Positions 3,092 through 23,492 of a stretch of DNA of 43,476 nucleotides are shown piece by piece. The stretch lies in the IMG/VR virus record IMGVR_UViG_3300028576_000001. One strand, given 5' to 3'. Source of the DNA: a virus. The notes below the pieces were generated by a model. The model was not told where the DNA came from, did not search any database, and worked only from the letters and a program-made list of their open reading frames with translations. The position numbers and the translations under genes were made by a program. Numbering within the stretch: position 1 is the stretch's first letter; each line of letters begins with the position of its first letter.

Positions 3092-4168
3092 ATGGCAATA
3101 AAAATCACACTTGACCCTGGGCATGGTAGGACTGGAAACCCCTATCCCCCACAAAAGGGTTACTATGAAGGAACACAAATGTGGAAGCTTGCAAATTTCC
3201 TGAAAACGGAACTTGAAAAGTATGGTTTTGAAGTTGTAACAACAAGACCAAATTTGAATGATGACCCTTCCCTTTCAGCAAGAGGGCAAACAGCAGGAAA
3301 GAATGGTTCTGCAATGTTTATATCCCTTCACAGTAATGCACCTGCAAGTGCTTCTGACACAAAACCAACAGGTTCAGTCATATACTATTCTTTGACAGAT
3401 GCTAACAACAAAGTATTTGCTGATAAGCTTGGAAAAAAGGCATCCGAAGTAATGGGGCATTATTACAGGGGAAGCTTAACAAGGGCATCATCCAGTGGTG
3501 CTGATTACTATGGTGTAATTAGGGCAGCAGCACAAAGTGGATGCAAAGCAGCTTTTATTGTTGAACATGGATTCCATACCAATATTAAGGATTCAGCATT
3601 CCTTATTGTGGATGATAACCTTCAAAAATTGGCGGTAGAAGAAGCAAAAGTGATTGCACAACACTTTGGTCAAGATACAAAAGAAAAACCCCCACAGGTC
3701 AATCCTGGGGTTCTGTATAGGGTTCAGACTGGTGCATTCAGTGTGAAGTCAAATGCAGATGCGTTACTTGCAAAAGTAAAGGCAGCAGGATTTGATACCT
3801 ATATGGTCAAAGTCAATGGACTGTATAAGGTTCAAGTTGGTGCTTTCAGTGTAAAAACAAATGCTGATGCTATGGCTGCAAAGTTAAAGGCAAAAGGATT
3901 TGATGTTTACATTACAACCGAAAGTGGAACACCTGTTGCATCTGAAACACAAAAGACAAAACCTGAAATTAAGGTTGGAAGTAAAGTCAAAATCAAACAG
4001 AACGCAAATGTGTATGGTAAGACAACAAAGTTCCAGTCATGGATATATCCTTTGACTTGGATTGTACATTCCATGAGTGGTGACAGGGTTGTTATCAACA
4101 AAGATACCACAGGTAAATATGCAATTATGTCACCTGTAAAGCTATCAGATTTGACATTGGTTGGATAA
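3092..4168 (+). CDS. Endolysin: N-acetylmuramoyl-L-alanine amidase (Amidase_3) with two SPOR repeats and a C-terminal SH3-like binding domain
   Basis: LDPGHG...ISLHSNA...EHGFHTN zinc-amidase motifs. Duplicated YRVQTGAFSVKSNADALLAKVKAAGF / YKVQVGAFSVKTNADAMAAKLKAKGF. Confidence 0.9.
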   Translation: MAIKITLDPGHGRTGNPYPPQKGYYEGTQMWKLANFLKTELEKYGFEVVTTRPNLNDDPSLSARGQTAGKNGSAMFISLHSNAPASASDTKPTGSVIYYSLTDANNKVFADKLGKKASEVMGHYYRGSLTRASSSGADYYGVIRAAAQSGCKAAFIVEHGFHTNIKDSAFLIVDDNLQKLAVEEAKVIAQHFGQDTKEKPPQVNPGVLYRVQTGAFSVKSNADALLAKVKAAGFDTYMVKVNGLYKVQVGAFSVKTNADAMAAKLKAKGFDVYITTESGTPVASETQKTKPEIKVGSKVKIKQNANVYGKTTKFQSWIYPLTWIVHSMSGDRVVINKDTTGKYAIMSPVKLSDLTLVG

Positions 4169-4171
4169 AAT

Positions 4172-4193
4172 ATTTGTTACTAATGTGTTACTA
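4172..4193 (-). repeat. 22-nt TAGTAACA-N3-TAGTAACAAAW element, copy E1
   Basis: The minus strand reads TAGTAACACATTAGTAACAAAT, with two 8-mers phased 11 nt apart. Copies are at 4343, 23471 and 25669. Confidence 0.7.
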
Positions 4194-4194
4194 A

Positions 4195-4342
4195 CCACTG
4201 GGTTTTAACCCTTCCTTCTGTGTTCAAAAAGTTCAACAATCCGCATAAATACAGGGTTTAAGGCACTTGTAAATTGAACAAATTCATGATATAATATCCA
4301 CAGATAACCCCGAACTGCTTATTTATAGCGGTTGGGGGTTAT
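4195..4342. other. Candidate attP region (non-coding, next to the integrase 3' end)
   Basis: Assigned by position only. It is a 150-nt gap between the convergent endolysin and integrase genes. No core sequence can be identified without the host site. Confidence 0.3.
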
Positions 4343-4346
4343 TTTT
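4305..4346. terminator. Bidirectional terminator between endolysin and integrase
   Basis: AACCCCGAAC (4305-4314) pairs with GTTGGGGGTT (4331-4340) in 9 of 10 positions. A T-run follows at 4342-4346. Confidence 0.65.
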
Positions 4347-4364
4347 GTTACTAACCTGTTATTA
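4343..4364 (-). repeat. 22-nt element, copy E2
   Basis: The minus strand reads TAATAACAGGTTAGTAACAAAA. Its first TAA is the integrase stop codon. It differs from E3 at one base. Confidence 0.7.
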
Positions 4365-5396
4365 GTTCAAAGTTGCATCTATCAATTCAATAGCTTCTTT
4401 CAGTTCTTCAATTGTCTTGTGGGTGTAGATTCTTTCACCCACTTCTTTTGATTTGTGACCCATCATCAAATCAATACAGACTTTGTTTGCACCTGCGGAA
4501 TCAAGTCTTGACCTGAATGTATGCCTGCATTCATGGGGTGTGTGTTCCATTCCCAACTGTTCCATGATGGTATTCCAAAAGATGTAATACTGACTGTTGG
4601 AAATTTTCTTCCCTTCATAACTGAAAAGATATTTGTTCCCCTGGTCTTTTCTTCTTTGAACTAACTGAACAATCTTGGAATGAATTGGAACAATACGGTC
4701 TTTTCCTGCTTTAGTCTTGATACCACCTTTTATTGTTCCTGCTTCCATGTCCACATTATCTGATTCAATAGACAGCATTTCACTGATTCTGAATCCTGTG
4801 TATAAAAGGAATATAACTGAATCAACCCATTCCTGGTCTTGAATTTCCCACACTTTGTTGACTTCTTCATCAGTGAATGGTCTTTTCTTGGTTTCAGGTA
4901 TTGGTTCAGCGGTTATCAACTGGGAATATGATTTGTTGATAACATCAAGTTCCAGTGCAAATCTATCCAAGTGACCAAACAGGTTCTTAATTGCCCACTG
5001 GGTAGAATAACCACATCCACAATTATCAATACAATCTTGCATATGGAAAGACCTGATTTCTTTATACTTCATGTTTTCAATTTTCTTACAATGCTTATAA
5101 GCTGATTTCAATGAACCTTGGGATGAAGCTGACATCTTATGAAGCTTCTTTTCTTTGAACTTTTCAAACAGTTCCTTCATGGTTATTTTGGCAGCATCTA
5201 TGTCATAGGGGTTGCGGTTATATTCAGCAAGAATCATCAGACCTTCTTCCCTTGTTGCACTGTAACCTATTGTGTCATATATGGGATGACCTTTTTCATT
5301 CCATCCTATTGTTTTACGAATAACATATGGTCGCCTGCGATTACCTGAAAGCTTGGCAACTGTACCATAACCATTTGGATTCTTGATGATGTTCAC
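4362..5396 (-). CDS. int: Tyrosine recombinase / phage integrase
   Basis: 344 aa. N-terminal SAM-like domain. Catalytic region has GFRISE...HECRHTF...LMGH...IYTH (the R-H-R-Y set). Confidence 0.92.
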   Translation of the reverse strand: MNIIKNPNGYGTVAKLSGNRRRPYVIRKTIGWNEKGHPIYDTIGYSATREEGLMILAEYNRNPYDIDAAKITMKELFEKFKEKKLHKMSASSQGSLKSAYKHCKKIENMKYKEIRSFHMQDCIDNCGCGYSTQWAIKNLFGHLDRFALELDVINKSYSQLITAEPIPETKKRPFTDEEVNKVWEIQDQEWVDSVIFLLYTGFRISEMLSIESDNVDMEAGTIKGGIKTKAGKDRIVPIHSKIVQLVQRRKDQGNKYLFSYEGKKISNSQYYIFWNTIMEQLGMEHTPHECRHTFRSRLDSAGANKVCIDLMMGHKSKEVGERIYTHKTIEELKEAIELIDATLN

Positions 5397-5420
5397 CCCC
5401 TTCCAATGAAAGCTTCATTC

Positions 5421-5873
5421 TTATAAGGAAACCTTGTTCAATTTTGCAGGTATTGGGTTCAGCTTCCTGAAATAGTCAACCATCTGTGCTGCATTGTACC
5501 AGTCCTTGGTTGCATCAATGACAATTGTTTTCAGGTCATCAGATTGATAGCTGACAAGCAAGAAGTGGTTCACAACCCTTTTTTCTTTGGTCTGCACCCT
5601 TCCACCTATCATTGCACCGATAACACCAAAGGCAACAGCACCAATAATCATTCCAGGGGCAGACTGCTTGATGATTTTTTCCATTTCAACATCTGACTTC
5701 AAATCAACCAGTGTTAATTTTGAAAAGTTAATTTCAAATTCTTGACCACATCCAACAATGGTCATTGCATCAGGTGTAAGCTTGATGGACAAATCTGAAT
5801 TCTGCGGAACTGGCAATCCTTCAACCAGGTTTCCAAGGGCAACTGCTTCATTTTTCGCTTTTTTACCGAACAT
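5421..5873 (-). CDS. Hypothetical membrane protein with a glycine-zipper TM segment (lysogeny-module accessory gene)
   Basis: The likely start is the second ATG (5873), after AAAGGCGG (the track ORF starts at 5891). It has one central TM segment, APGMIIGAVAFGVIGAMIGG. No family recognised. Confidence 0.6.
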   Translation of the reverse strand: MFGKKAKNEAVALGNLVEGLPVPQNSDLSIKLTPDAMTIVGCGQEFEINFSKLTLVDLKSDVEMEKIIKQSAPGMIIGAVAFGVIGAMIGGRVQTKEKRVVNHFLLVSYQSDDLKTIVIDATKDWYNAAQMVDYFRKLNPIPAKLNKVSL

Positions 5874-5887
5874 AATATTACCGCCTT

Positions 5888-6223
5888 TCATTTTATATAT
5901 CGTTGAATATATTTAATCCATTCATCAATTTTGGGTATAAAATCTTGGATGCTTCCTTCAACTGAATAGTGTTTATACAAGCCTTTTAATACTTGCATAT
6001 AATGTATTTTTCCTTGTAATTTAACCTTTCCAATTGGGTAACCAAAGTATTCAACAGCAAGTGTTCCATCAGACATTCTGACCAGTGTGACATTTTTATT
6101 CAAGTTTGCTTTTTGTAATTTTGTAAGCAAAGTTTCCAAAAATAATTTTTCCAAATCATTCACTTCATACACTTTTGAAGGTGGAACTGAATTATATCGG
6201 ATATTAAACTTAATCAATAGCAT
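5888..6223 (-). CDS. Hypothetical protein (111 aa), lysogeny-module accessory gene
   Basis: Start MLLIKF... at 6223 after AAAGGAAGTGATG. The track's upstream extension to 6271 runs into the TGTTACA array. No motif recognised. Confidence 0.55.
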   Translation of the reverse strand: MLLIKFNIRYNSVPPSKVYEVNDLEKLFLETLLTKLQKANLNKNVTLVRMSDGTLAVEYFGYPIGKVKLQGKIHYMQVLKGLYKHYSVEGSIQDFIPKIDEWIKYIQRYIK

Positions 6224-6244
6224 CACTTCCTTTCTTTTGGTATG

Positions 6245-6377
6245 TGTTACACATGTTACAGTGTTACACATATTTTCTTATTACTTTATTTTTATAGAAA
6301 CTATAAATTTTGATGATTTGAAGCTTTGAAAATATAAGAAATACAAAGTAAGTGTAACATGTGTAACATGTGTAACA
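6245..6377. repeat. Convergent heptamer arrays around an AT-rich core (locus A)
   Basis: TGTTACA at 6245, 6254 and 6262. An 84-bp AT-rich core. TGTAACA at 6353, 6362 and 6371. Confidence 0.85.
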
Positions 6378-6403: not shown

Positions 6404-6685
6404 TCATACAAAGGTCACCTGTATGCATTCAAGCAGTTCAACTTCCGCTGCATTCTTTTCATACATCAACCTTTCCATTGGAACATCATACCCCATCAAC
6501 CAGGCTTCATTGACATTTAGGGCTTTAGCAATTTTATATAATGCTTTCTGTTTTGGTTCATATATACCTGAATAATATTGACTTATTGCAGATTTTGAAA
6601 GACCAGTTCTTTCTACCAGGTCAGCTTGTTTCATATCTCTAATTTCCATGGCTTTTCTTAATCTACTTACAAATGATTCTTTCAT
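6404..6685 (-). CDS. XRE-family HTH repressor (CI-like, short form without a peptidase domain)
   Basis: MKQADLVERTGLSKSAISQYYSGIYEPKQKALYKIAKALNVNEAWL is a canonical HTH_3 sequence. It is divergent from the early promoter. Confidence 0.85.
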   Translation of the reverse strand: MKESFVSRLRKAMEIRDMKQADLVERTGLSKSAISQYYSGIYEPKQKALYKIAKALNVNEAWLMGYDVPMERLMYEKNAAEVELLECIQVTFV

Positions 6686-6834: not shown

Positions 6835-6861
6835 AAGTAGTTCAGCTTTCCAAAGATGTTC

Positions 6862-6926
6862 CTTGATAATTGAATACAGACCAGTAAAAAGCATGGAACA
6901 ACCCCCATGTTGTAATAATCTGGTTG
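6862..6926 (+). promoter_or_regulatory. Conserved 65-nt structured leader element, copy 1
   Basis: 55/65 identical to 7877-7941. It folds as GACCAG..[hairpin CAUGG-8 nt-CCAUG]..CUGGUU and lies ~55 nt downstream of the early promoter. Confidence 0.6.
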
Positions 6927-6957
6927 TAAATTTTATTTAAGATTGGTGGTGAAATAA

Positions 6958-7859: not shown

Positions 7860-7876
7860 CTTATTGACTACTGTTC

Positions 7877-7941
7877 TTTGACAACTTAATACAGACCAGT
7901 AAACGGTGTGGAACAATCCCCATGTTGTAATAACCTGGTTG
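7877..7941 (+). promoter_or_regulatory. Conserved 65-nt structured leader element, copy 2
   Basis: P1 is GACCAG (7894-7899) with CUGGUU (7935-7940). P2 is ACGGUGUGG (7903-7911) with CCAUGUUGU (7920-7928). The loop is AACAAUCC. It ends 25 nt before the 7967 start. Confidence 0.6.
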
Positions 7942-7966
7942 ATTATATTAGAAAGGGGGTGAACCA

Positions 7967-8731
7967 TTGAATGAACAACCAAAGCTGCAAAGTGATTATT
8001 CATCAATTATTGTAAGCTATTCAAACGGAATTGACAGTGCAGGTGCATTATACTGGGCAGTGAATAATTTCCCAAAAGAAAAAATATTCCTTCTTTATTG
8101 TGATACTGGGATGGAATATGACATCAATATACAGTTGTTTTATAAAACAGCAGCATTCATGCGTGTGAAACCAATATTACTTGCACACCCAAAGAGTTTC
8201 CTTGGACTACTACTTGAAGAAAGACTGATGTTCCCTGACATGAAAAATAGATGGTGTACTTCTTATCTTAAAACAGGAATCACTGATAAATGGATGAGAG
8301 CAAACAGGAACATCCTTGGTGAAAAGTGCTTGTTTATAAGTGGTGAAAGAAGGGATGAATCACCAAAGCGGTCAAGACTTCCTGAAATTGAATACCACAG
8401 AACCCACTTGAAAACTGAAAGGGTTGCAAAGTTTGAATGTCACTGGTTCAGACCCTGCTTGGATTTTGAGAAGGGGAAAATGTTTGAACAAGGAAAACAA
8501 CTTCACCTTGAACCACATCCTTGTTATGAATATGTTGACAGGTGCAGTTGCATGTTTTGTGTATTCATGAAGGATAGGCACACAATTGAGAATATGAAAA
8601 GACATCCTGAAAAAATAAAACCATATATTCAAGCTGAAATCAAACTGCAACATACATGGAAAGCTAAAACCAGCTTAAAAGAATTATGGGATACAGTTTG
8701 TGATGAAGTTGAAGATGGCATTTTAGGATAG
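7967..8731 (+). CDS. PAPS-reductase-family PP-loop ATPase (phage type)
   Basis: TTG start after AAAGGGGGTGA. PP-loop SYSNGIDSAGALYWA, then LLYCDTGMEYD. C-terminal Cys cluster CYEYVDRCSCMFC. Confidence 0.7.
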   Translation: MNEQPKLQSDYSSIIVSYSNGIDSAGALYWAVNNFPKEKIFLLYCDTGMEYDINIQLFYKTAAFMRVKPILLAHPKSFLGLLLEERLMFPDMKNRWCTSYLKTGITDKWMRANRNILGEKCLFISGERRDESPKRSRLPEIEYHRTHLKTERVAKFECHWFRPCLDFEKGKMFEQGKQLHLEPHPCYEYVDRCSCMFCVFMKDRHTIENMKRHPEKIKPYIQAEIKLQHTWKAKTSLKELWDTVCDEVEDGILG

Positions 8732-9116: not shown

Positions 9117-9350
9117 ATGATTGATGTGACTTTTGATTATTCCAAGGTTAGAGGAAAAATCAAAGAAGTATTTGGAACACAGTCTGCATTTGCAGAAGCA
9201 ATGTCCATGTCACCTGTTTCCCTGTCTGAAAAGCTGAATAACAAAGTGCAATTCAGTCAGAAGGAAATTGACAGAGCATGTGACCTGCTTCAAATTGCAA
9301 AAGAAGAAATCCCCATATATTTTTTTACACCAAAAGTTAAGGAAGCTTAA
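9117..9350 (+). CDS. Small HTH protein (DUF739/Cro-like)
   Basis: MIDVTFDYSKVRGKIKEVFGTQSAFAEAMSMSPVSLSEKLNNKVQFSQKEI. ATG 9117 follows GGAAAGGAAGG (the track ORF starts at 9108). Confidence 0.65.
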   Translation: MIDVTFDYSKVRGKIKEVFGTQSAFAEAMSMSPVSLSEKLNNKVQFSQKEIDRACDLLQIAKEEIPIYFFTPKVKEA

Positions 9351-9371: not shown

Positions 9372-9779
9372 ATGAAAATGAGTTTTTCAGAGCAGTTGAA
9401 AAAAGCAATGTTGGAACGAAACATGAACCAAGCTGAACTTTCAGCACTTACTGGAATCGGAAAATCATCAATCAGTCAGTACCTTTCAGGTAAAAATGAA
9501 CCAAAAGAACTTGCGTTGAACAAGATTGCAGAAGCACTTGATTGTTCAGTTGCTTTCCTGAAAGGTGAAACGAATTGCAGCGATTCAACACCTGACCCCA
9601 AAGGATTGAGAAATGTACCTGTTGACCAGGCTGCAAAAATGCTTGGTAAGTCAAGGCAATTTGTAAGGGTTGCCCTTCAAAGAGGTATTGCACCATTTGG
9701 ATTTGCGGTAAAGTTGTCAGGCGAAAAATTTTCTTACCACATTTCACCGAAGAAGCTGAATGAATATATCGGAATATGA
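9372..9779 (+). CDS. XRE-family HTH DNA-binding protein with a C-terminal extension
   Basis: MNQAELSALTGIGKSSISQYLSGKNEPKELALNKIAEALDCSVAFL. Confidence 0.8.
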   Translation: MKMSFSEQLKKAMLERNMNQAELSALTGIGKSSISQYLSGKNEPKELALNKIAEALDCSVAFLKGETNCSDSTPDPKGLRNVPVDQAAKMLGKSRQFVRVALQRGIAPFGFAVKLSGEKFSYHISPKKLNEYIGI

Positions 9780-9796
9780 GAAAGGAAGGTTCAGAC

Positions 9797-10864
9797 ATGG
9801 AAAATGTAAAAGGATTCAAAGTGTTCAGTCCTGATTGGACATGCAGGGGTTTCCAGTATGAAGTTGGCAAGGTATATGAAGAAAATGTGACACCAAGCGT
9901 TTGTGACAGAGGTTTTCACTTCTGCAAACAGGCAAAGGACTGTTTCAACTATTACAAGTTTGACCCCAACAACAAGGTTGCAGAAGTCATTGCCCTGGGC
10001 GATATTGCAGAAGATGGTGACAAGTGCTGCACCAACATAATCAAGATTGAAAGAGAAATCACCTGGGAAGAAGTGCTGACAATTGTCAACACTGGAAAGG
10101 CTTGCACTGGTCTTTGCAACAGCGGTAACAGGAACAGCGGTGATTGGAACAGCGGTAACAGGAACAGCGGTGACTTCAACAGCGGTGATTGGAACAGCGG
10201 TGATTGGAACAGCGGTGATTGCAACAGCGGTAACAGGAACAGCGGTGATTGGAACAGCGGTGATTGGAACAGCGGTAACAGGAACAGCGGTAACAGGAAC
10301 AGCGGTGATTGGAACAGCGGTAACAGGAACAGCGGTGATTGGAACAGCGGTAACAGGAACAGCGGTGACTTCAACAGCGGTGATTGCAACAGCGGTGATT
10401 GGAACAGCGGTAACAGGAACAGCGGTAACAGGAACAGCGGTAACAGGAACAGCGGTAACAGGAACAGCGGTAACAGGAACAGCGGTAACAGGAACAGCGG
10501 TGATTGGAACAAGGCTTCCAATGTGGTTGGTTGCTTCAATACTGAAAATCAGAAGCTGCGGTTCTTTGATAAGGAAACAGACATGACCTTTGAGCAGTGG
10601 CGAAATTCGGAAGCATGTTGGTTGATGAACAGAATTGATTTCAGACCTGCTGACTGGATTTGGTCAAATGAAATGTCAGATGCTGAAAAGGCTGAACATC
10701 CTGAACATGAAACCACTGGCGGTTATTTGAAAATTCGTGACAACACTGACTGCTGCAAAGAATGGTGGAACGGTCTTAACCAAAGAGAAAAGCAAGTCAT
10801 CATGAGCATCCCCAACTTTGATGCAGATAAGTTCTTCAAAATAACTGGGGTAAAGGTTGGGTGA
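9797..10864 (+). CDS. Pentapeptide-repeat protein with a Cys/His-containing N-terminal domain (DUF7666-like) and a C-terminal globular domain
   Basis: The N-terminus FKVFSPDWTCRGFQYEVGKVYEE...CDRGFHFC is a recurrent phage domain. It is followed by 26 consecutive NSG[DN][WRFC] pentapeptides. ATG 9797 follows GAAAGGAAGG. Confidence 0.8.
   Translation: MENVKGFKVFSPDWTCRGFQYEVGKVYEENVTPSVCDRGFHFCKQAKDCFNYYKFDPNNKVAEVIALGDIAEDGDKCCTNIIKIEREITWEEVLTIVNTGKACTGLCNSGNRNSGDWNSGNRNSGDFNSGDWNSGDWNSGDCNSGNRNSGDWNSGDWNSGNRNSGNRNSGDWNSGNRNSGDWNSGNRNSGDFNSGDCNSGDWNSGNRNSGNRNSGNRNSGNRNSGNRNSGNRNSGDWNKASNVVGCFNTENQKLRFFDKETDMTFEQWRNSEACWLMNRIDFRPADWIWSNEMSDAEKAEHPEHETTGGYLKIRDNTDCCKEWWNGLNQREKQVIMSIPNFDADKFFKITGVKVG
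10118..10507 (+). repeat. 26 tandem 15-nt units, AACAGCGGT(AACAGG / GATTGG / GACTTC / GATTGC)
   Basis: Counted from the sequence: 390 nt. The first 9 nt of every unit are invariant, and only four unit variants occur. Confidence 0.95.
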
Positions 10865-10868
10865 TTGC

Positions 10869-12167
10869 ATGAAGCTATATGAACACCAAAAGCAAGCACT
10901 GGAACAGACCAAAGCATTCAACAAGGTTGCATATTACTTGGACATGGGTCTTGGTAAAACATTTGTTGGTTCGGAAAAGATGGTTCAACTTGGTACAGAT
11001 ACCAACATCATAATCTGTCAGAAATCAAAGATAAATGACTGGATGAAACACTTCAAAGACCACTATCCAAGAATTCAAATTTATAACCTGACCGATAAAA
11101 AGCAACTGGATGATTTCATTTCACATGATACAGCATGGGCAGGTTATCCTGGTGCAATAATGACAGTCGGCATCATCAATTATGATTTAGTATTCAGAAG
11201 GTCAGAACTTCTTCAATTAGAGCATTTCACCTTGATGCTTGATGAATCATCACAAATACAAAATGACACTGCAAAACGGTCAAAATTCATCCTTAAAATG
11301 AAACCTGACAATGTGATTCTACTTTCAGGAACACCTACATCAGGAAAATATGAAAACCTATGGTCACAGATGAACCTGCTTGGATGGTCAATCAGCAAAG
11401 AATTATACAATAGACAATATGTGAACTGGGTCAAAGTCGAAACAGATGGTTTCATTCACTTTGTAATTGACAAAGAAGAACCTTACAAGAATGTTGACCG
11501 ATTAAAACAAAAGATGCGTGATTATGGGTCAGTGTTCCTTAAAACAGAAGAATGTTTTGACCTTCCTGAACAGATATTCATTCCAATTACAGTTAAGAAA
11601 ACAAAAGAATACACAAGATTCAGGAAAAAAGGACTTGTGACAATTGATGGAACTGAACTTGTTGGTGACAGCACCTTGACTAAAAGATTATATTCCAGGA
11701 TGCTTTGTGGTCACTACAACAAGGACAAGCTTCAAGCATTCAAAGACCTGGCATCCAGTACAAAAGACAGACTGATTGTGTTCTACAACTTCAATGCAGA
11801 ACTGGATGCACTTCAACGGATAGCAGCAGAACTTGAAAGACCTATATCACAGGTGAATGGTCATGTCAAAGACCTGACTGCTTATGAAAATGAAGAAGAT
11901 TCAATCACCCTGGTGCAATATCAGGCAGGTGCAATGGGATTGAACCTTCAAAAGGCAAACAAGGTTGTGTTCTTCACACTCACTGATAAAAGTGAACTTT
12001 TTGAACAGGCAAAAAAGAGGGTTCACAGAATCGGTCAAAGCAAGACATGCTTCTATTACCTGATGATGTGCAACGACAGTGTTGAAGAAGTCATCCTTGA
12101 TACCTTGAACCAAAGAAAGGATTTTACTGACTATCTATTTGAGCAGTTTGAAAGGGATTCAAAATGA
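10869..12167 (+). CDS. SNF2-family helicase/ATPase
   Basis: LYEHQKQA...MGLGKT (motif I), LMLDESSQIQ (motif II), LLSGTP, QAGAMGLNLQ, RVHRIGQ (motif VI). Confidence 0.88.
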   Translation: MKLYEHQKQALEQTKAFNKVAYYLDMGLGKTFVGSEKMVQLGTDTNIIICQKSKINDWMKHFKDHYPRIQIYNLTDKKQLDDFISHDTAWAGYPGAIMTVGIINYDLVFRRSELLQLEHFTLMLDESSQIQNDTAKRSKFILKMKPDNVILLSGTPTSGKYENLWSQMNLLGWSISKELYNRQYVNWVKVETDGFIHFVIDKEEPYKNVDRLKQKMRDYGSVFLKTEECFDLPEQIFIPITVKKTKEYTRFRKKGLVTIDGTELVGDSTLTKRLYSRMLCGHYNKDKLQAFKDLASSTKDRLIVFYNFNAELDALQRIAAELERPISQVNGHVKDLTAYENEEDSITLVQYQAGAMGLNLQKANKVVFFTLTDKSELFEQAKKRVHRIGQSKTCFYYLMMCNDSVEEVILDTLNQRKDFTDYLFEQFERDSK

Positions 12168-12622: not shown

Positions 12623-13218
12623 ACTATTCAAAGAATGTGAGATATAAGAAAAACCACAAGCAAGTGGTGTTTAGAAGGATTCTTATTTCATGGGTTATCA
12701 TCTTGTTAGTTGGTGCAATGGTTGGCTTCTTTATTGGAAGGTCAACAAAGTCAGCAAATACATTACCAATAACCACTGAAACCAGTACGTTTGCCCCTTT
12801 CCCCACACTAACAGTTACACCACATGTGACAATGACCCCTGTTCAAGAAACTTCTGAACCGCAACCAAAAACTGAATTGGTTAGCCTGGGCGAATTCAGA
12901 ATCACAGCATACTGTCATTGTGAAAAGTGCTGCGGTGACTGGTCAAAAGACAGACCAACAGATGAAGATGGAAAGCTGCTTGTGTACACAGCATCAGGTG
13001 AACTTGCAGTTGAAGGTATGACCATAGCAGCGGATACAAGTGTACTGCCCTTTGGAACGGAAGTCATCATTGATGGCAACAGGTACATAGTCCAGGACAG
13101 GGGCAGAGTTATCAAAAACAACCGAATTGATGTGTATTTTGAAAATCATCAGGATGCCTTGGAATTCGGTGTTCAATACAAAGAAGTATTTATAGAAAGG
13201 ATGATTGAAAATGATTAA
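12619..13218 (+). CDS. Membrane-anchored 3D-domain (MltA/YabE-type) cell-wall-binding or lytic protein
   Basis: N-terminal TM (ILISWVIILLVGAMVGFFIG). RITAYCHCEKCCGDW...TASG...TIAADTSVLPFGTEVIIDG..YIVQDRG..I...RIDVYF. Confidence 0.75.
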   Translation: MNYSKNVRYKKNHKQVVFRRILISWVIILLVGAMVGFFIGRSTKSANTLPITTETSTFAPFPTLTVTPHVTMTPVQETSEPQPKTELVSLGEFRITAYCHCEKCCGDWSKDRPTDEDGKLLVYTASGELAVEGMTIAADTSVLPFGTEVIIDGNRYIVQDRGRVIKNNRIDVYFENHQDALEFGVQYKEVFIERMIEND

Positions 13219-13654
13219 GTGTAACAATGAATGCCCATTGAAAAAGTTTGACGGATGTTGTCATTCTTGCCCCCACATTGAGGGATGCACAGATGCATGT
13301 GAAAGTGAACCAAAAACATGCGGTGAAGCAATCTTTGATGAAGAAACAGGTTTGATGACATTCCAGGAACAGCAGGTTGCAGTTCTTCAACAAATTGCTG
13401 ACCTGGTAACTGCAAAGAAAAAGATTGAAGCACAGGAAAAGGAACTGAAAGACAAGTTGAAAGAAGCAATGGAAAAATACAGTGTTAAGAAGTTTGACAG
13501 TGACATTCTGAAAATCACATATGTTGCTGCAACTACTGCAACAAGCATTGACAGTGCTAAGCTGAAAAAGAAGTACCCTGCTATTGCAGAAGAATGTTCA
13601 AAGACTTCTAAAAAATCAGCTTACATCAAAGTTGAAATCAAGGATGAAGCCTAA
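13211..13654 (+). CDS. Hypothetical protein with a Cys-rich N-terminus and a coiled coil
   Basis: CNNECPLKKFDGCCHSCPHIEGCTDACESEPKTC followed by a coiled coil. No family recognised. Confidence 0.55.
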   Translation: MIKCNNECPLKKFDGCCHSCPHIEGCTDACESEPKTCGEAIFDEETGLMTFQEQQVAVLQQIADLVTAKKKIEAQEKELKDKLKEAMEKYSVKKFDSDILKITYVAATTATSIDSAKLKKKYPAIAEECSKTSKKSAYIKVEIKDEA

Positions 13655-13841
13655 AGAAACCACATGCAAGGATTGCAGAAAGTGGCGGTATTGCGTGGAA
13701 AGTTCCAGGGGATATCCTTGCATCAAGTTTGAAAGGATGTGTTGCAAGTGGGCAGTGAAAAACGGTTTGAAACCAAGGTCAAGAAGTGGCTTGAATCAGA
13801 AGGAATCTATTCAGCAGGAACAGCACAGGACAAGAAAGTGA
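13644..13841 (+). CDS. Possible small Cys-rich ORF (65 aa); its 3' ~100 nt overlap the VRR-NUC gene
   Basis: MKPKETTCKDCRKWRYCVESSRGYPCIKFERMCC... The RBS is weak, and the long out-of-frame overlap leaves its extent uncertain. Confidence 0.3.
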   Translation: MKPKETTCKDCRKWRYCVESSRGYPCIKFERMCCKWAVKNGLKPRSRSGLNQKESIQQEQHRTRK

Positions 13842-14164
13842 TTCCTGAATGTGGTTGGTACTTAAAGACCTGGGGCGGTGGAATGCAAAAATCAGGCATC
13901 CCTGACCTGCTGCTTTGTGTGAATGGCTTCTTCATCAGTGCAGAACTGAAAGGTGATGCAGGAAAACCATCTGACCTTCAATTGAAAAACACAACAGCAA
14001 TCAATGGGTCAAATGGAATAGGTATGGTTCTTTATCCGAAAGGATTTGAACAATTTCAAAACATAGTGAAAGGGGTGAAAAAATGCAATGTTCACACAGC
14101 AGAATTGAATGCTTTGAAAAATGCCCATTCAAGTACAAGCTGCGTTATCGTGACAAAATACTAA
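13739..14164 (+). CDS. VRR-NUC domain nuclease
   Basis: FETKVKKWLE...SGIPDLLLCVNGFFISAELKGDAGKPSDLQ has the PD-(D/E)XK VRR-NUC signature. The start is ambiguous (GTG 13739, TTG 13742 or GTG 13748). Confidence 0.75.
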   Translation: MLQVGSEKRFETKVKKWLESEGIYSAGTAQDKKVIPECGWYLKTWGGGMQKSGIPDLLLCVNGFFISAELKGDAGKPSDLQLKNTTAINGSNGIGMVLYPKGFEQFQNIVKGVKKCNVHTAELNALKNAHSSTSCVIVTKY

Positions 14165-15786
14165 CCTTGCCCCCTGATAATGCTGACCATCCGCTTATTA
14201 TTGGAACAGCACTTCACACAGGGTTGGAAAAGGGTGTGACAAAAGCAATTGATGAATACTTCATGTCATATCCAATAATCACAGATGACCATATCAATGA
14301 AGCAATTAAGCTTGAATACTTGATACCAAGGGCATCAAAGCTGTTACCCAAAGGGGAATTTGAAGTCAAGATTTCAACGGAAGATTTCATTGGTTATATT
14401 GACCTTCTTGCACCAGTGACCATGTTCCATGAATCGGAAGTTCCGAATCAGTATGACATCTATGACTTCAAGTATTCCAATAATATCAGCAATTACAAAC
14501 AGTCAGACCAGTTGCACCTGTACAAATATTTCTTTGAAAAGTGCAACCCTGGCAAGTACATCAGAAACCTTTTCTTCTTGTTTGTTCCGAAGGTCAATAT
14601 CAAGCAGAAGAAAACCGAAGATTTGTCAGAGTTTAGGAAAAGAATTCTTGATGAATTGAAGGGTGTTGAACCCGAACTGGTTCAGATTGAGTATGACCCA
14701 AACAAGGTCATCAACTTCTTACTGAACACAAAGCACACCATTGAAGCAACGGAATTCAACAAAAACAGCACATATCTTTGTAACTGGTGCGAATACCAAA
14801 ATTATTGTGAGAAAGGAATTGATTATATGTTGTTACCAAAAAATGAAAGAAGGAACATCCAAAAGATTGAAAAGAAAGTCATTTGGATGTATGGGTCACC
14901 ATTCAGCGGAAAGACCACATTTGCAAATAAGTTTCCTGACCCCTTGATGTTGAACACAGATGGAAATATCAAGTTTGTTGATGCCCCTTACATTGCAATC
15001 AGGGATAAGGTTGAAGCAAACGGAAGGTTAGCACCAAAAAGAACCTTTGCATGGGCAATGTTCAAGGAAGTTATTGAGGAACTTGAAAAGAAAGACAATG
15101 ATTTCAAGACCATCATTGTTGACCTGCTTGAAGATTGTTATGAACATTGCAGACTGTACATGTATGACCAAATGGGCATCACCCATGAATCTGATGACAG
15201 TTTCAGGGCATGGGATAAGGTTCAGACTGAATTCCTGTCAACCTTGAAGAAGCTGATGAACCTGGACTATGAAAACATCATTCTGATTTCCCATGAAGAT
15301 ACTTCAAAGGACATTACCAAAAAGGGCGGTGACAAAATCACTGCAATCAAGCCGAATCTGCGTGAAAAGGTTGCAAACAAGGTTGCAGGTATGGTTGATA
15401 TTGTGGCAAGGGTTATTGCTGATGATAATGTCAGAACCCTGTCTTTCAAGACCAATGAAGTAATCTTTGGCGGTGGTAGATTGACAGTCAGTACCAATGA
15501 AATTCCACTTGATTATGATGCTTTCTTGGAAGTCTATGAAGAAGCAAATAAAAATGCAGTTGCAGAATTGAGTGGTGAAAAACCTGCTGCATCCGCTTCC
15601 ACTGAAAGAAAAGGCAGAAAGAAGAAGGAAGAACCTGCTGAACCTGCACCCAAAGAAGAACCGCAAGAAGAAACAGAACCTGCGGATGCTGAACCCAAAG
15701 AGGAAATAAAGGAAGAACCACAGGAAGAACACACTGAACAAGAAGCACCAAAGACAAAAAAGACCAGGAAAAAGAGGGGTGAATAA
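14083..15786 (+). CDS. Fusion protein: Cas4/RecB-like PD-(D/E)XK exonuclease, AAA_24 (Sak4-like) ATPase, and an acidic/Lys-rich tail
   Basis: N-terminal half: CFEKCPFKY...IGYIDLL...YDFKYS...QLHLYKYF...CNWCEYQNYC, giving four Cys plus nuclease motifs. C-terminal half: Walker A YGSPFSGKTT and Walker B IIVDLLED. The tail is rich in E, P and K. Confidence 0.75.
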   Translation: MQCSHSRIECFEKCPFKYKLRYRDKILTLPPDNADHPLIIGTALHTGLEKGVTKAIDEYFMSYPIITDDHINEAIKLEYLIPRASKLLPKGEFEVKISTEDFIGYIDLLAPVTMFHESEVPNQYDIYDFKYSNNISNYKQSDQLHLYKYFFEKCNPGKYIRNLFFLFVPKVNIKQKKTEDLSEFRKRILDELKGVEPELVQIEYDPNKVINFLLNTKHTIEATEFNKNSTYLCNWCEYQNYCEKGIDYMLLPKNERRNIQKIEKKVIWMYGSPFSGKTTFANKFPDPLMLNTDGNIKFVDAPYIAIRDKVEANGRLAPKRTFAWAMFKEVIEELEKKDNDFKTIIVDLLEDCYEHCRLYMYDQMGITHESDDSFRAWDKVQTEFLSTLKKLMNLDYENIILISHEDTSKDITKKGGDKITAIKPNLREKVANKVAGMVDIVARVIADDNVRTLSFKTNEVIFGGGRLTVSTNEIPLDYDAFLEVYEEANKNAVAELSGEKPAASASTERKGRKKKEEPAEPAPKEEPQEETEPADAEPKEEIKEEPQEEHTEQEAPKTKKTRKKRGE

Positions 15787-16333: not shown

Positions 16334-16789
16334 ATGGCACAAAACATTTGGGATAAGTTTGATAAGCAGTACAACACAGAGGAATTGGCAAAGGAAGTTA
16401 AGGAACAGAAAGAAAATGGTGGCAACTTTACCCCTGTTCCCTTTGGAAGCTATGAAGTAGCAGTAACCAAAATGGAACTGACAGAATCCAAAGCACATGA
16501 CCCTATGGTTACAATTTGGTTCAAGGTTCTGAATGGTGAACACAAAGGTAGCTTGATTTTCTACAACCAGGTAATCACACAGGCTTTCCAAATCCATCTT
16601 GTCAATGAGTTGTTAAGAGCAATGGACACAGACCTTGACATTGAGTTTGTAACATACAAGCAGTATGCACAGCTTCTGATGGATGTTCATGAAGCTATTG
16701 ATGGCAACCTTGAATTTGGTTTGGACTATACCGAAGGAAAGAAAGGTTTCCCCAAATTTGAGATTACAGAAGTGTTTGAAGTTGAATAA
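16334..16789 (+). CDS. DUF669-family protein (SSB-like partner of Sak4-type ATPases)
   Basis: GGNFTPVPFGSYEVAVTKMELTESKAHDPMVTIWFKVLNGEHKGSLIF is a typical DUF669 core. It sits in the recombination module. Confidence 0.65.
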   Translation: MAQNIWDKFDKQYNTEELAKEVKEQKENGGNFTPVPFGSYEVAVTKMELTESKAHDPMVTIWFKVLNGEHKGSLIFYNQVITQAFQIHLVNELLRAMDTDLDIEFVTYKQYAQLLMDVHEAIDGNLEFGLDYTEGKKGFPKFEITEVFEVE

Positions 16790-16900: not shown

Positions 16901-18607
16901 ATGAAAATGCTGTTTTATGACTTTGAAGTTTTCAGTCAGGATTGGTTGGTGGTCATCCTGGATGTAACAAACAGAAAAGAACATGTAATCATCAATGACC
17001 CTGATGAACTTGAAAGAGTGTACAAGGAAAATGTCAATGACATTTGGGTTGGCTATAACAGCAGACCTTATGACCAATACATCCTGAAAGGCATCCTTTG
17101 CGGATTTGACCCCAAACAAATCAATGATTTCATTATAGTGAAGGGAAACCCTGGATGGAGGTTTTCTTCTGTGCTGCGGAATGTACCATTGATAAATTAT
17201 GATGTGATGCTTGGAACTGATAGAGGATTGAAAACTTTTGAAGGGTTCATGGGTCACAACATCAAGGAATCAAGTGTTCCTTTTGATATAGACAGAAAAC
17301 TGACACAAGAAGAAATTGATGAAACAGTAAAGTATTGTAGACATGATGTGGAACAGACCATTGAAGTGTTCCTGCAAAGAAGTGAAGAATTTGATGCTTC
17401 CAGGGAACTTATTAAGATATTCAATTTACCAGTAACATCATATAGCAAAACCAAAGCACAATTGGTTGCTGAAATATGTGGTGGTATGGGAAAAAGGTTT
17501 GATGGCAATGAATTTGACTTCCCCATTGTTCCATGTGTGGAAAAGCAATTGAAAAAATATAGGTATGTTCTTGATTGGTACAAGAACCCTGAAAACCATG
17601 ATTATTCAAAATCACTGGAAACAATCATTGCAGGTGTACCACATACATTTGCCTGGGGTGGCATCCATGGTGCAAAGAAGCAAAACACTGAATCGGGTGT
17701 GCTGTTGAATATGGATGTGACAGCTTATTACCCTTCCATTCAATTGCAATATAAGTTTGGTTACAGGAACATGTCAAAGCCTGAAAACTTTGAATTGATA
17801 CACAAAGAAAACCTGCGATATAAAGCCGAAGGAAACAAAAAAGCAAGGTCACCTTTTAAGATTGCAGATAACAGTATGAGTGGACAGCTTAAAGACAAGA
17901 ACAGCAAATTGTATGACCCATTGATGAATAATGCAGTTTGCGTGAATGGTCAGCTTATGCTGCTGATGCTGATTGAAATGGTTGAACCCCATGCACAGCT
18001 TGTTCAGAGCAACACAGATGGTATTTTGTTAAAGCTGAAAAGCATTGATGATTATGACATCCTGGATGATGTTGTTTATGAATGGGAATGTGCAACAGGA
18101 ATGAAAATGGAATTTGAACTATTCAGCAAGGTGTTCCAAAAGGATGTGAACAATTACATTCTAATTGCTGATGATGGGAAAATCAAATCCAAAGGTGGTT
18201 ATGTGAAAAAGCTTTCAAATTTAGATTATGACCTTCCGATTATCAACAAGGCACTTATCAACTACATGGTGCATGGAATATCTGTTGAAGATACCATCCT
18301 TCCCTGCAATGACCTGAAAGAATTTCAGATGGTAACAAAGATTTCAAATAAGTACAAGCACATAGTTCATGGTAACAAGATACTGAAAGAAAAATGCATC
18401 AGAGTATTTGCATCCAAAGCACCTTCTGATGCAGGGGTGTTCAAAATTAGCATTCGGACTGGGAAGCCTGAAAAGATATCAAATTCACCTGAACACTGCT
18501 TCATTTTCAATGATGCGGTCAATGGATTGAAAGTTCCTGAAAAACTTGACAAGCTTTGGTATATCAAGTTTGCAAAGAAAAGGCTTGCTGATTTTGGGGT
18601 GGTGTGA
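16901..18607 (+). CDS. Family B DNA polymerase (compact phage type) with a 3'-5' exonuclease domain
   Basis: Exo motifs FYDFEV, YNSRPYD and YCRHDV. Pol motifs DVTAYYPSI (DxxSLYPS-like), KIADNSMSGQL (KxxxNSxYG-like) and SNTDGIL (DTD-like). Confidence 0.8.
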   Translation: MKMLFYDFEVFSQDWLVVILDVTNRKEHVIINDPDELERVYKENVNDIWVGYNSRPYDQYILKGILCGFDPKQINDFIIVKGNPGWRFSSVLRNVPLINYDVMLGTDRGLKTFEGFMGHNIKESSVPFDIDRKLTQEEIDETVKYCRHDVEQTIEVFLQRSEEFDASRELIKIFNLPVTSYSKTKAQLVAEICGGMGKRFDGNEFDFPIVPCVEKQLKKYRYVLDWYKNPENHDYSKSLETIIAGVPHTFAWGGIHGAKKQNTESGVLLNMDVTAYYPSIQLQYKFGYRNMSKPENFELIHKENLRYKAEGNKKARSPFKIADNSMSGQLKDKNSKLYDPLMNNAVCVNGQLMLLMLIEMVEPHAQLVQSNTDGILLKLKSIDDYDILDDVVYEWECATGMKMEFELFSKVFQKDVNNYILIADDGKIKSKGGYVKKLSNLDYDLPIINKALINYMVHGISVEDTILPCNDLKEFQMVTKISNKYKHIVHGNKILKEKCIRVFASKAPSDAGVFKISIRTGKPEKISNSPEHCFIFNDAVNGLKVPEKLDKLWYIKFAKKRLADFGVV

Positions 18608-18643: not shown

Positions 18644-20536
18644 TTGTTTTTCAAAGGATATGTTGAAACCAAAGATAAGAAATGCATTGAGAAGTTCAAA
18701 AACAGAACTGATTTCAAAACATACCGACAAGTGAAGTCACTTCCTGAATTTGCAGGTATTTTGGATACTGACACCATTCTGATTGATATTGATGACTTTG
18801 AACAAAGTGAACTTTTGTTTCAAATAGTCAAAGACCATCAGTTGAAGTGCAGAGTTTATGAAACCACAAGGGGTAAACACTTCTTGTTTAAGAATACAAC
18901 TGTTGACACCAACAGAACCAAAGCGAATCTTGCAATTGGTTTGGTTGCTGACATCAAGCTTGGTAAAAAGAATTCATATTCAGTCTTAAAGTTCAACAAT
19001 AAAGAAAGAAAAATACTTTATGACCAAGCTGACAATGAAGAAGCACAGGAACTTCCAAAGTGGATGCTTCCAGTGAAAACAACAATGGAATTCCTGAACC
19101 TTGAACCTGGTGATGGAAGAAATCAATCCCTGTTCAACTACATATTAACTTTACAATCAAATGATTTCAGTGTGGAAGAATCCAGGGAATGTATCAGGCT
19201 TATAAACAAATACATTCTAAAAGTTCCATTATCAGATGATGAATTAGAAGTGATACTGCGTGATGATGCTTTCAAGAAACCAGTGTTTTTCAAAGGTACA
19301 ACCTTCCTTTTTGATAAATTTGCAACTTATTTGAAAAACAACCATCACATTATCAGGATAAACAACCAATTGCATCTTTACAGGGATGGGGTTTATATCA
19401 GCGGATACATGGAAATTGAATCTGAAATGATTAAACATATCCCCCAACTTAACAGGGCAAAAAGGGCAGAAGTTTTGGCATACCTGGAAATTATGATTCG
19501 TGAAAACACCCCTGCATCCCCTGCCCACATGATTGCTTTCAGAAATGGCATTCTGAACATAAAAGATGATAGCTTCACCCCTTTTTCACCTGACATTGTA
19601 ATTACAAACAAAATCGAATGGGATTACAACCCACATGCTTATTGTGAACTCACAGATAAAACCCTTGACAAGATTGCTTGCAATGACCCGAACATAAGGG
19701 CATTACTTGAAGAAGCAGCGGGATTCTGTATGTTCAGAAGAAATGAACTGGGAAAAGCGTTTATCTTAACTGGTACAGGAAGCAACGGAAAATCAACTTA
19801 TCTGAACATGTTGAAGCACATGCTTGGAAAGCACAATGTTTCATCCCTGGACTTGAAAAAGCTTGGTGACAGATTCAGCACAGTAATGTTGTTTGGAAAG
19901 CTTGCCAATATAGGTGATGACATATCTGATGAATTCATCATGGATGCTTCAATCTTCAAGAAAATAGTCACTGGTGAAACCATTGATGCTGAACAAAAAG
20001 GTCAACCAAAATTTGAATTTGAACCTTATGTGAAGCTGTTCTTTTCTGCAAACAACATTCCAAGGATGGGTAAAGGAAGGGATTCTGCTGCAATATTAAG
20101 GCGGTTGATTATTGTTCCATTTGATGCAAGGTTTACTGTTGATGACCATGACCATGACCCACATATTGGTGATATGCTGCGGTCACAGGAATCAATGGAA
20201 TATCTGATTCAACTTGGTTTGAAAGGTTTGAAAAGAGTTCTTAAAACCAAGAAGTTCAGCGAATCAGAAAAAGTTCAAAAAGAACTTGAAGAATATGAAG
20301 AAAGTAACAACCCTGTTCTTGGATTCATCAAAGAAATTGAATTAAGTGATGACTTCAAGATTGAGAATGAACCAACAAAGGATGTTTACAAGAGATACCA
20401 AGAATATTGCTTGGCAAATAATCTGCAACCTATGTCAAACATTGAATTTTCAAAGCAAATCAACAGAATTTTGAACATGCAAGTTGTTGTTAAAAGGATT
20501 GGAAACAAGACCCACAGATTATTTGTTCCAAGGTAA
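18644..20536 (+). CDS. Primase-helicase (prim-pol N-terminus, D5_N-like region, P4-family P-loop C-terminal domain)
   Basis: ILIDIDD...TTRGKHFLF (prim-pol). Walker A LTGTGSNGKST. Walker B-like IGDDI. TTG start after GAAAGGAAG. Confidence 0.8.
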   Translation: MFFKGYVETKDKKCIEKFKNRTDFKTYRQVKSLPEFAGILDTDTILIDIDDFEQSELLFQIVKDHQLKCRVYETTRGKHFLFKNTTVDTNRTKANLAIGLVADIKLGKKNSYSVLKFNNKERKILYDQADNEEAQELPKWMLPVKTTMEFLNLEPGDGRNQSLFNYILTLQSNDFSVEESRECIRLINKYILKVPLSDDELEVILRDDAFKKPVFFKGTTFLFDKFATYLKNNHHIIRINNQLHLYRDGVYISGYMEIESEMIKHIPQLNRAKRAEVLAYLEIMIRENTPASPAHMIAFRNGILNIKDDSFTPFSPDIVITNKIEWDYNPHAYCELTDKTLDKIACNDPNIRALLEEAAGFCMFRRNELGKAFILTGTGSNGKSTYLNMLKHMLGKHNVSSLDLKKLGDRFSTVMLFGKLANIGDDISDEFIMDASIFKKIVTGETIDAEQKGQPKFEFEPYVKLFFSANNIPRMGKGRDSAAILRRLIIVPFDARFTVDDHDHDPHIGDMLRSQESMEYLIQLGLKGLKRVLKTKKFSESEKVQKELEEYEESNNPVLGFIKEIELSDDFKIENEPTKDVYKRYQEYCLANNLQPMSNIEFSKQINRILNMQVVVKRIGNKTHRLFVPR

Positions 20537-22915: not shown

Positions 22916-22968
22916 CATGAAATGTCCTTGTATGTCACTGTTAATATATGGTTCAATTAAACTTGAAG

Positions 22969-23000
22969 AAATAGCAGCAAGTGAATTGCTGCTATTTTTT
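22969..23000 (+). terminator. Rho-independent terminator between the late activator and terS
   Basis: AAATAGCAGCAA-gtgaa-TTGCTGCTATTT (12-bp arms), followed by a T-run. Confidence 0.75.
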
Positions 23001-23473: not shown

Positions 23474-23492
23474 TAACAGGTTAGTAACAAAA
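23471..23492 (+). repeat. 22-nt element, copy E3
   Basis: TAGTAACAGGTTAGTAACAAAA. Its first TAG is the terS stop codon. Confidence 0.7.

Follow-up and report, generated by a model that had tools for sequence, protein, structure and literature searches.

The window analysed here (the whole stretch of 43,476 nt of IMG/VR virus record IMGVR_UViG_3300028576_000001, to which all coordinates refer) is a circular assembly with a genome of 43,349 bp, positions 1-127 being repeated at 43350-43476. It carries genes for terS, terL, portal, tape measure, amidase and integrase (Table 1) and is a complete temperate siphophage. Two loci, A and B, are located about 16 kb apart and bracket the early/replication module. 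Locus A is flanked by the HTH gene and the accessory/integrase operon, and locus B by the last early gene (21574-22146) and the late regulator gene, which is followed by terS (Terminase_2 family, approximately 550 bp downstream of locus B). The stop codon of the primase-helicase gene is separated from locus B by 1.6 kb containing four ORFs, and locus A is situated 12.3 kb upstream of the helicase gene. A strong terminator was predicted after the DUF1492 gene (22966-23000). None was predicted before locus A or locus B, both of which reside inside transcription units. GC skew followed the coding strand and transcription and gave no origin signal.

Both loci consist of short repeats, a core of 84-91 bp with 82-85% A+T and the same repeats in inverted orientation. 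The strand pattern of the iterons is +++ / --- in locus A and +++ / -- in the inner arrays of locus B. Locus A is minimal, with 3+3 iterons, and locus B is extended, with 13 iterons plus spacer elements. GTTAC is found on the plus strand of locus B at 22165, 22186, 22239, 22248 and 22257, and GTAAC at 22354, 22363, 22431, 22445, 22451 and 22464, with reversed copies at 22208 and 22409; the iterons at 22185 and 22207 are part of a 30-nt inverted repeat with 22408-22437. The left array of locus A is separated by 19 bp from the ATG of the minus-strand gene 5888-6226, its distal array abuts the 3' end of HTH gene 6404-6685, and 30 bp separate the outer right iterons of locus B from the ATG of 22499-22915. 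The 24-mer at 6354-6377 recurs without mismatch, as its reverse complement, at 22238-22261. An element similar to the locus B spacer, (G)AAA(R)C(M)TTGAT(A), was seen by eye in relatives irrespective of their iteron class.

Table 1. Coordinates of loci A and B and of the surrounding genes in the window
Feature	Position	Strand	Remarks
Amidase	3092-4168		
Integrase	4362-5396	-	
Two accessory genes	5421-5891 and 5888-6226	-	
Locus A, gene-proximal iteron array	6245-6268	+	TGTTACA x3 at 6245, 6254 and 6262; spacing 9 and 8 bp
Locus A, AT-rich core	6269-6352		84 bp, 82% A+T, quasi-palindromic
Locus A, core box	~6270-6298	-	TCTATAAAAATAAAGTAATAAGAAAATAT
Locus A, weaker box copy in core	6328-6344	+	GAAAATATAAGAAATAC
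Locus A, distal iteron array	6353-6377	-	TGTAACA x3 at 6353, 6362 and 6371; 9-bp period
93-aa HTH repressor-like gene	6404-6685	-	
Rightward early genes	from 7055		
SNF2 helicase	10857-12167		
Gp157-like protein	13205-13654		
PD-(D/E)XK endonuclease (g13739)	13739-14164		VRR-NUC-like, phrog_93
AAA_24 / PDDEXK protein	14083-15786		
DUF669 protein	16334-16789		
DNA polymerase	16901-18607		
D5-type primase-helicase	18644-20536	+	630 aa
Recognition helix and wing segment	20435-20533	+	codons 598-630; tracks iteron class
Locus B, outer left iterons	22164-22213	+	TGTTACA 22164, TGTTAC 22185, reversed TGTAACA 22207
Locus B, spacer element	22214-22237		GAAAGCCTTGATAATACAGGG; compared by eye
Locus B, inner left iteron array	22238-22261	+	TGTTACACA TGTTACACA TGTTAC
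Locus B, AT-rich core	22262-22352		91 bp, 85% A+T
Locus B, core palindrome	22302-22320		ATCATTAAATTTTAATGAT
Locus B, conserved core box	22323-22346		CATAAAAAATAACTATATAAGAAG; gene-proximal side
Locus B, inner right iteron array	22353-22368	-	TGTAACA x2; 9-bp period
Locus B, outer right iterons	22408-22469	-	reversed TGTTACA 22408; GTAACA 22431; TGTAAC 22444; TGTAACA 22450 and 22463
DUF1492 / sigma-70 region 4 late regulator	22499-22915		
terS, split terL, portal, tail genes	from 23018		

The repeats are far from random. TGTTACA occurs 27 times, compared to 10.8 +/- 2.9 expected copies, and this number was reached in none of 100 shuffles. Fifteen of the 27 copies lie inside the two loci, which explain the entire excess because the remaining 12 equal the chance expectation. 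GTTAC is also in excess (97 copies, 52 expected); this count includes 13 copies from an unrelated 15-nt coding repeat in the pentapeptide-repeat gene 10125-10489. No equivalent of the 24-mer match was obtained in 100 shuffles, even when 3 mismatches were tolerated. A de novo blind detector (tandem 6-mer pair, 40-140 bp, inverted tandem pair) returned exactly two sites in the window, loci A and B; of 300 Markov-simulated genomes, only 8 gave one or more hits. The cores of A and B are two of only three stretches in the genome that reach at least 80% A+T over 90 bp. An earlier note on this DNA had described the two-locus architecture with the coordinates of locus A, the inverted 24-mer and the gene context (bracketing of the early region, integrase operon, late activator and packaging genes), all of which were reproduced, the first by the iteron positions and the blind detector. 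Its iteron copies in locus B were likewise recovered, while its core length required correction from 92 to 91 bp. Two further expectations raised there, enrichment of the hexamer over shuffled sequence and conservation of the arrays in related phages, were borne out as well.

The layout of the loci is shared by dozens of contigs from related phages and by prophages of Clostridia. A blastn search with loci A and B against 50,697 GenBank phages identified no relative. The comparison was based on 42 IMG/VR loci with a gene for a late-regulator (DUF1492) homologue, whose upstream 400 bp were inspected; further sites were taken from the +/-10 kb around the AAA_24 gene and, in bacterial genomes, from the surroundings of the helicase gene. 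The relatives are metagenomic, and their hosts were deduced from prophages in Clostridia, Lachnospiraceae, Ihubacter and Erysipelotrichaceae assemblies. A locus-B-like layout was present upstream of the DUF1492 gene in about 30 of the 42 relatives, and core lengths across the family ranged from 80 to 100 bp. In some relatives (L226, L232 and L241), the A-like site, not B, is the extended one. The array lies directly 3' of the helicase gene in two distant prophages (L279 and L284); in other relatives, small genes occupying 1.6 to 5.8 kb are found between the helicase gene and the array. An IMG/VR scan with TGTTACANNTGTTACA yielded mostly chance matches, but at least five unrelated contigs with inverted arrays were among the listed ones, and in L101, L090/L095 and L145, which are unrelated and show the arrangement [GTTACA]n-core-[GTAACA]n, a DUF5906 SF3 helicase gene is located less than 2 kb away.

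The repeat word itself differs among relatives, the words found being TGTTACA, GGTAACA, GTTCAAG(ATG), GTCACA, GTACCA, TTGAAGG, GGACA and AGCCTGTC. TGTTACA with a 9-bp period is the word of the close relatives, and GGTAACA is repeated with a 7-bp period and opposite polarity. The words GTTCAAGATG, GTTCAAGTTG and TTGAAGG were encountered upstream of the DUF1492 gene in other relatives; GTCACA and GTACCA were added by A-like sites, GGACA and AGCCTGTC by prophages. Sampling is good for three iteron classes, all others being singletons, and the classes partly follow clades. One prophage region rich in GTGTCA/GTGACA is known from a hexamer tally only. Within a genome, the word was identical at A and B in all 11 genomes readable at both loci (window, L203, L222, L226, L232, L241, L248, L257, L264, L277 and L278). 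Judging from this concordance within genomes, combined with the variation between phages, a single phage-encoded, sequence-specific protein must read both loci.

An asymmetric box, cTAAAAAATAA-N3-5-TATAAGAA, is conserved family-wide on the gene-proximal side of the core. Of the B sites, 15 of 16 carry it on the right, and of the A sites, 15 of 19 carry it on the left; A and B are thus inverted relative to each other and face outward from the early region, locus A towards the accessory/integrase operon and locus B towards the late-activator gene. The inverted orientation claimed in the earlier note thus holds family-wide by box position; in the window alone, the alignment of A with B gives 100 and 101 matches in the two orientations, because the core is quasi-palindromic. 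Weak sigma-70-like matches are present in both cores, that of locus B being lost in L007, and the conserved box (TATAAG/TATAGA) does not have the final T of a -10 hexamer. No canonical sigma-70 promoter was found to be conserved in the cores. Given its position by the downstream genes, the box may be a transcription signal as plausibly as an unwinding element.

The only products encoded in all array-bearing relatives are HTH135, the SNF2 helicase, the endonuclease, the AAA_24 protein, the DUF669 protein, the polymerase and the primase-helicase. The last of these is the best candidate for the iteron reader. It contains D5_N, DUF5906 and Pox_D5 domains and matches PDB entries 7OLA/7OM0, the SaPI5 protein PriRep5, with E = 6.5e-43. 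Recognition of origin iterons by PriRep5 resides in its C-terminal winged helix (PMC9371898). In an AlphaFold2 model of residues 508-630 (pLDDT 85.7), the recognition helix spans residues 599-609 and a beta-hairpin wing residues 612-629. The best Foldseek matches of the same segment were the RFX DNA-binding domain and Orc1/Cdc6 winged helices on origin DNA; their E-values are weak (0.08-0.13) because the C-terminal domain is small.

A strict test for diagnostic alignment columns singled out no protein and was replaced by windowed identity, calculated for proteins sampled in all three main classes, and by partial Mantel statistics. Residues 598-630 of the primase-helicase were the joint-best class-separating 30-aa window (AUC 0.996; identity 0.76 within and 0.44 between classes). 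Across residues 601-630, identity averaged 71% within and 42% between classes, with a between-class maximum of 57%, and the within- and between-class identities overlapped in all other regions of the protein. The partial Mantel correlation of class with the C-terminus, given the rest of the protein, was r = 0.63 (p = 0.0005; 39 distinct proteins), as opposed to r = 0.13 for class with the rest, given the C-terminus. In these alignments, the wing tracks the repeat class independently of the remaining protein. Predictions of the iteron word from the wing alone held in L285, L283, L282 and L280.

Other candidates were set aside. The segment tying with the D5 C-terminus at an AUC of 0.996 (residues 24-53 of g13739) is a variable endonuclease loop, and the tie was judged an artefact because the segment is absent in half of the GTTCAAG genomes and gapped pairs were skipped. 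Residues 196-225 of the SNF2 protein, a helicase without a known sequence-specific DNA-binding role, reached a lower AUC of 0.97. The HTH segments of HTH135 (135 aa) do not differ between TGTTACA and GTTCAAG genomes, and the protein is divergent in L202, whose iterons are the same as those of the window. The copy of the 93-aa HTH protein in L241, a GTTCAAG genome, is closer to that of the window than are the copies of TGTTACA relatives. DUF1492 is 78% identical in L051, whose iterons differ, and DUF739 and small early ORFs are absent from many relatives. TerS was discarded as a reader for its divergence among relatives with the same arrays (see below). Pairs of the form TAGTAACA-N3-TAGTAACA, which contain GTAACA, were also considered as part of the system; they belong to something else because they are unchanged in GTTCAAG-class genomes. 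Folding of a 79-nt early-region repeat as RNA was unconvincing.

Natural chimeras separate the wing from its surroundings. Compared to the window protein, that of L241 is 100% identical across residues 571-600 and 40% identical across residues 601-630, which resemble those of GTTCAAG genomes, and its iterons read GTTCAAGATG at both loci. At the DNA level, the two genomes are 89% identical up to codon 605, 53% across the wing and a 24-nt gap, and 85% in the next gene, of which only the first 21 codons in L241 are window-like. The difference between them is a wing cassette of about 100 nt with homologous flanks on either side. In L283 and L281/L288, too, the helix is of the window type, SKQ[I/V]NR[I/T]L, whereas both the wing and the iterons are of the GTTCAAG type. 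Linkage is ruled out as the source of the covariation between wing and iterons because locus A, at a distance of more than 12 kb, changes its word together with the wing.

We consider it probable that A and B are origin sites of the SaPI/PICI type that are read by the winged helix of the D5-type primase/SF3 helicase. A SaPI origin is defined by at least two iterons per side, in opposite directions, with an AT-rich centre (PMC9371898, PMC6092414). The winged helix of SaPI Rep binds the iterons, after which Rep opens the AT-rich centre by melting and self-loads there, probably in the form of two hexamers (PMC9371898, PMC6092414). Each of the SaPI/PICI elements (SaPI1, SaPIbov1, SaPI5 and the E. 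coli PICIs) has its own initiator-iteron specificity (PMC9371898, PMC6092414). The initiators of such elements are self-loading helicases of SF3 or SF6 that bind DNA through a C-terminal winged helix. The window shares with these elements the opposed sets of 5-8 nt iterons around an AT-rich region of ~80-90 bp, the self-loading type of SF3 helicase with a C-terminal winged helix, fused to a primase as in SaPI5, and a matched initiator-iteron pair, here computed from the covariation of wing and iterons. An iteron-flanked origin with an AT-rich unwinding element had been one of four possibilities named without preference in the earlier note, and it is the one favoured by the SaPI/PICI architecture, the PriRep5 homologue and the winged helix that co-varies with the repeats. 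If it acts like SaPI Rep, the initiator would bind the iterons on both sides of the core through its C-terminal winged helix, the iteron word being specified by residues 598-630 (beta-hairpin wing plus the last part of the recognition helix). The bound initiator would constrain and then melt the AT-rich core and would self-load as a hexameric helicase, probably with one ring on each side. Priming would then be performed by the phage primase domain and synthesis by the phage's own DNA polymerase (16901-18607).

Several features set the window apart from SaPI/PICI elements. It is a full 43-kb temperate siphophage and not a satellite, and it carries two inverted sites ~16 kb apart. Neither of them lies immediately 3' of the helicase gene, in contrast to the array in L279 and L284, which matches the SaPI position. 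Locus B has outer iterons and conserved spacer elements, and the core contains a conserved asymmetric box facing the downstream gene. SaPI has a single origin, and the second copy in the window does not fit this simple picture.

It is possible, although we regard it as somewhat unlikely, that the helicase binds both loci and only one of them, most likely B, is a true origin, with the other acting as a crr-like auxiliary or handcuffing site, or that both act as Rep roadblocks; in the roadblock variant, late-activator and integrase-operon expression would be tied to replication. The contrast between the minimal locus A and the extended locus B would fit such a division of labour, as would the position of both sites inside transcription units without a preceding predicted terminator; the terminator at 22966-23000 is compatible with the DUF1492 gene being the last in the early transcription unit. 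Phage P4 also sets a precedent, with two iteron loci bound by one primase-helicase. However, by the SaPI definition locus A is a complete origin, and the larger iteron set belongs to the A-like site in some of the relatives.

It appears distinctly unlikely that the repeats are operator arrays flanking promoters in the cores, through which a dedicated phage regulator would co-regulate the late-activator gene (B) and the accessory/integrase operon (A), much as ParR acts on parC of plasmid R1 or the omega repressor on heptad arrays. The short distances of both sites to a downstream ATG, the orientation of the box towards the downstream gene in nearly all B sites and most A sites, and the weak sigma-70-like matches in both cores are what such arrays would be expected to display. 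On the other hand, no other DNA-binding protein follows the repeat class (HTH93, HTH135, DUF739 and DUF1492 being discordant or absent), the genes downstream of A differ among relatives with the same iterons, and the symmetric design is kept although there is no gene on the upstream side. The truncated -10 hexamer of the conserved box and the loss of the promoter-like match from the B core of L007 also speak against promoters. The operator arrays proposed in the earlier note may stand as a second role of the sites, but the HTH candidates named there (6404-6685, 9117-9350, 9372-9779 and 22499-22915) either disagree with the repeat class or are missing from many relatives.

It is highly improbable that the loci are pac sites for the small terminase, comparable to pacL/pacR of SPP1: locus B lies close upstream of terS, and the SPP1 pac site also has repeats around a central region, but L045-L050 and L056 carry near-identical TGTTACA arrays (with identical TGTTACACATGTTACA) and a TerS only 32-40% identical to that of the window, an identical second site is found next to the integrase operon, 16 kb from locus B, and the iteron class follows the helicase wing and not terS. 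These observations contradict the terminase recognition repeats suggested earlier. The partition sites suggested along with them found no support either: a Pfam scan of ~40 ORFs contained no partition ATPase and no ParA/ParM homologue, and the phage encodes an integrase.

Returning to the reading of A and B as SaPI-type origin sites, related arrangements are known from other phages. The alpha protein of P4 (primase-SF3 helicase-winged helix) reads the iteron TGTTCACC at two loci, ori and crr; its primase is of the DnaG type, and crr, a pair of 120-bp direct repeats, is 4.5 kb apart from ori. The two-locus layout of the window family recalls that of P4, the same iteron being found at both loci, concordantly in 11 genomes; its binding by the helicase is suggested by covariation. 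It differs in that crr is not an iteron/AT-core/iteron copy of ori. Bacillus phage SPP1 possesses two distant origins, oriL and oriR, with the same G38P-binding repeats beside AT-rich DNA; G38P, which is itself no helicase, recruits one of the DnaB type via a loader. SPP1 is thus similar in having two distant origin regions in one phage, and different in repeat layout and type of initiator. In Streptococcus thermophilus Sfi21-type phages, the origin is located downstream of a putative primase gene. They share the module of SNF2 helicase, Gp157, AAA_24, DUF669 and D5/VirE-type primase, and a repeat-rich non-coding origin after the primase gene and before the late genes; to our knowledge, neither paired inverted copies nor a code relating iterons to a winged helix has been described for them. 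At the level of the fold, the best match is RFX (PDB 1DP7), whose wing carries much of the DNA contact, a role that fits the tracking of iterons by the wing seen here. RFX is a eukaryotic transcription factor, and the similarity, at 14% identity, is one of fold only. Contact of both the recognition helix and the wing of RFX with DNA has been reported, and the domain order of P4 alpha is given in the same source (PMC2777425). A literature search, whose coverage was incomplete, retrieved no description of a paired version of such origins in phages. What is new here is the duplicated, inverted and family-conserved SaPI-type pair in a true phage; the design itself is known from SaPIs.

The inverted pair raises the question of whether there are two origins or one origin and one control site. 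A more speculative notion, which we hold to be rather unlikely, is that the pair forms a functional unit, in which initiator bound to both sites would link replication with gene expression and with the decision to integrate. Helicase assemblies may then block read-through until the origins fire or until new copies titrate the initiator; alternatively, A and B may pair by looping, like ori and crr of P4, and thereby license initiation. If this were true, a satellite-type origin would do regulatory work in a full phage, and the family would constitute a natural lookup table from wing sequence to iteron word.

The presence of such proposed origins, with a PriRep5 homologue, in complete temperate phages of Clostridia points to a possible source of satellite replicons, or to exchange between the two. 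With at least three well-sampled specificities, about five rarer ones (GTCACA, GTACCA, TTGAAGG, GGACA and AGCCTGTC) and natural 100-nt wing swaps, the family offers a system for decoding how the wing of a winged helix reads DNA, and for constructing orthogonal replicons for anaerobic Firmicutes.

Both spacers of locus B, between the inner iterons that adjoin its AT-rich core and the outer iterons, contain (G)AAA(R)C(M)TTGAT(A). The same element occurs at equivalent positions in relatives and is kept across iteron classes, that is, whichever repeat word these carry; this conservation suggests that a factor of the host, or one that the phages have in common, binds there. A second type of repeat, TAGTAACA-N3-TAGTAACA with an 11-bp period, follows the amidase, integrase, terS and terL genes, each time immediately beyond the stop codon. 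Since it is the same in relatives of every iteron class, it is part of another system than the iterons. Two of its copies border the lysin–integrase intergenic region of 170 bp, within which attP is probably located.

Direct GTAACA-N2-4-GTAACA pairs were also observed in an unrelated, GC-richer contig (L154; IMG/VR 3300047552_000850), where they recur at 3795-5479 upstream of several small genes. Their layout differs from that of the origin-type arrays, and they look like a promoter or operator motif. Within the window, the periodic GTAAC matches at 10125-10489 are due to the 15-nt units, 25 in tandem, of an early gene encoding a DUF7666 domain and pentapeptide-repeat protein.

Positions 1-127 recur exactly as 43350-43476, a terminal duplication of 127 nt that identifies the window as a genome of 43,349 bp assembled in circular form. 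Its large terminase is encoded in two pieces (spanning 23522-25671) with an HNH/NUMOD4 homing-endonuclease ORF between them. This insert is absent from most relatives, with a clear HNH homologue in only three of the loci compared, and no group I intron was called by Rfam at the gathering threshold. Between the tail and lysis genes, an Rfam RT-17 RNA match (49.8 bits, exceeding the gathering score) overlaps the 5' start of a reverse transcriptase ORF (370 aa; RVT_1, E = 4e-21); the pair could be a phage-borne retron-like or diversity-generating element.

Features of the window, with positions and strands
Feature	Position	Strand
RT-17 RNA match	504-604	+
Reverse transcriptase ORF	589-1701	+
TAGTAACA-N3-TAGTAACA	4175-4193	-
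TAGTAACA-N3-TAGTAACA	4346-4364	-
TAGTAACA-N3-TAGTAACA	23471-23489	+
TAGTAACA-N3-TAGTAACA	25669-25687	+
HTH repressor-like protein	6404-6685	-
79-nt repeat, first copy	6857-6935	
79-nt repeat, second copy	7872-7950	
PAPS-reductase-like gene	7967-8731	+
DUF7666/pentapeptide-repeat gene	9776-10864	+
Tandem 15-nt units	10034-10588	
Protein with dATP/dGTP diphosphohydrolase N-terminal domain	20554-21150	+
Spacer element, locus B	22214-22237	
Spacer element, locus B	22369-22407	
Large terminase, N-terminal part	23522-23992	
HNH/NUMOD4 ORF	24043-24639	
Large terminase, C-terminal part	24802-25671	

The early genes beginning at 7055 and 7967 are each preceded by a copy of a 79-nt direct repeat (82% identity) with internal pairing potential; compared with shuffled controls, only the first copy folds better (z = -2.6). 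The PAPS-reductase-like and diphosphohydrolase-domain genes may have a role in nucleotide or DNA modification. The HTH repressor-like protein comprises 93 aa; relatives L202–L206 have a protein of ~140 aa, of which it looks like a C-terminally truncated version. On visual inspection, the C-terminal domain has been lost to a frameshifting deletion with TGAC microhomologies on either side. The repressor of this phage may be defective.
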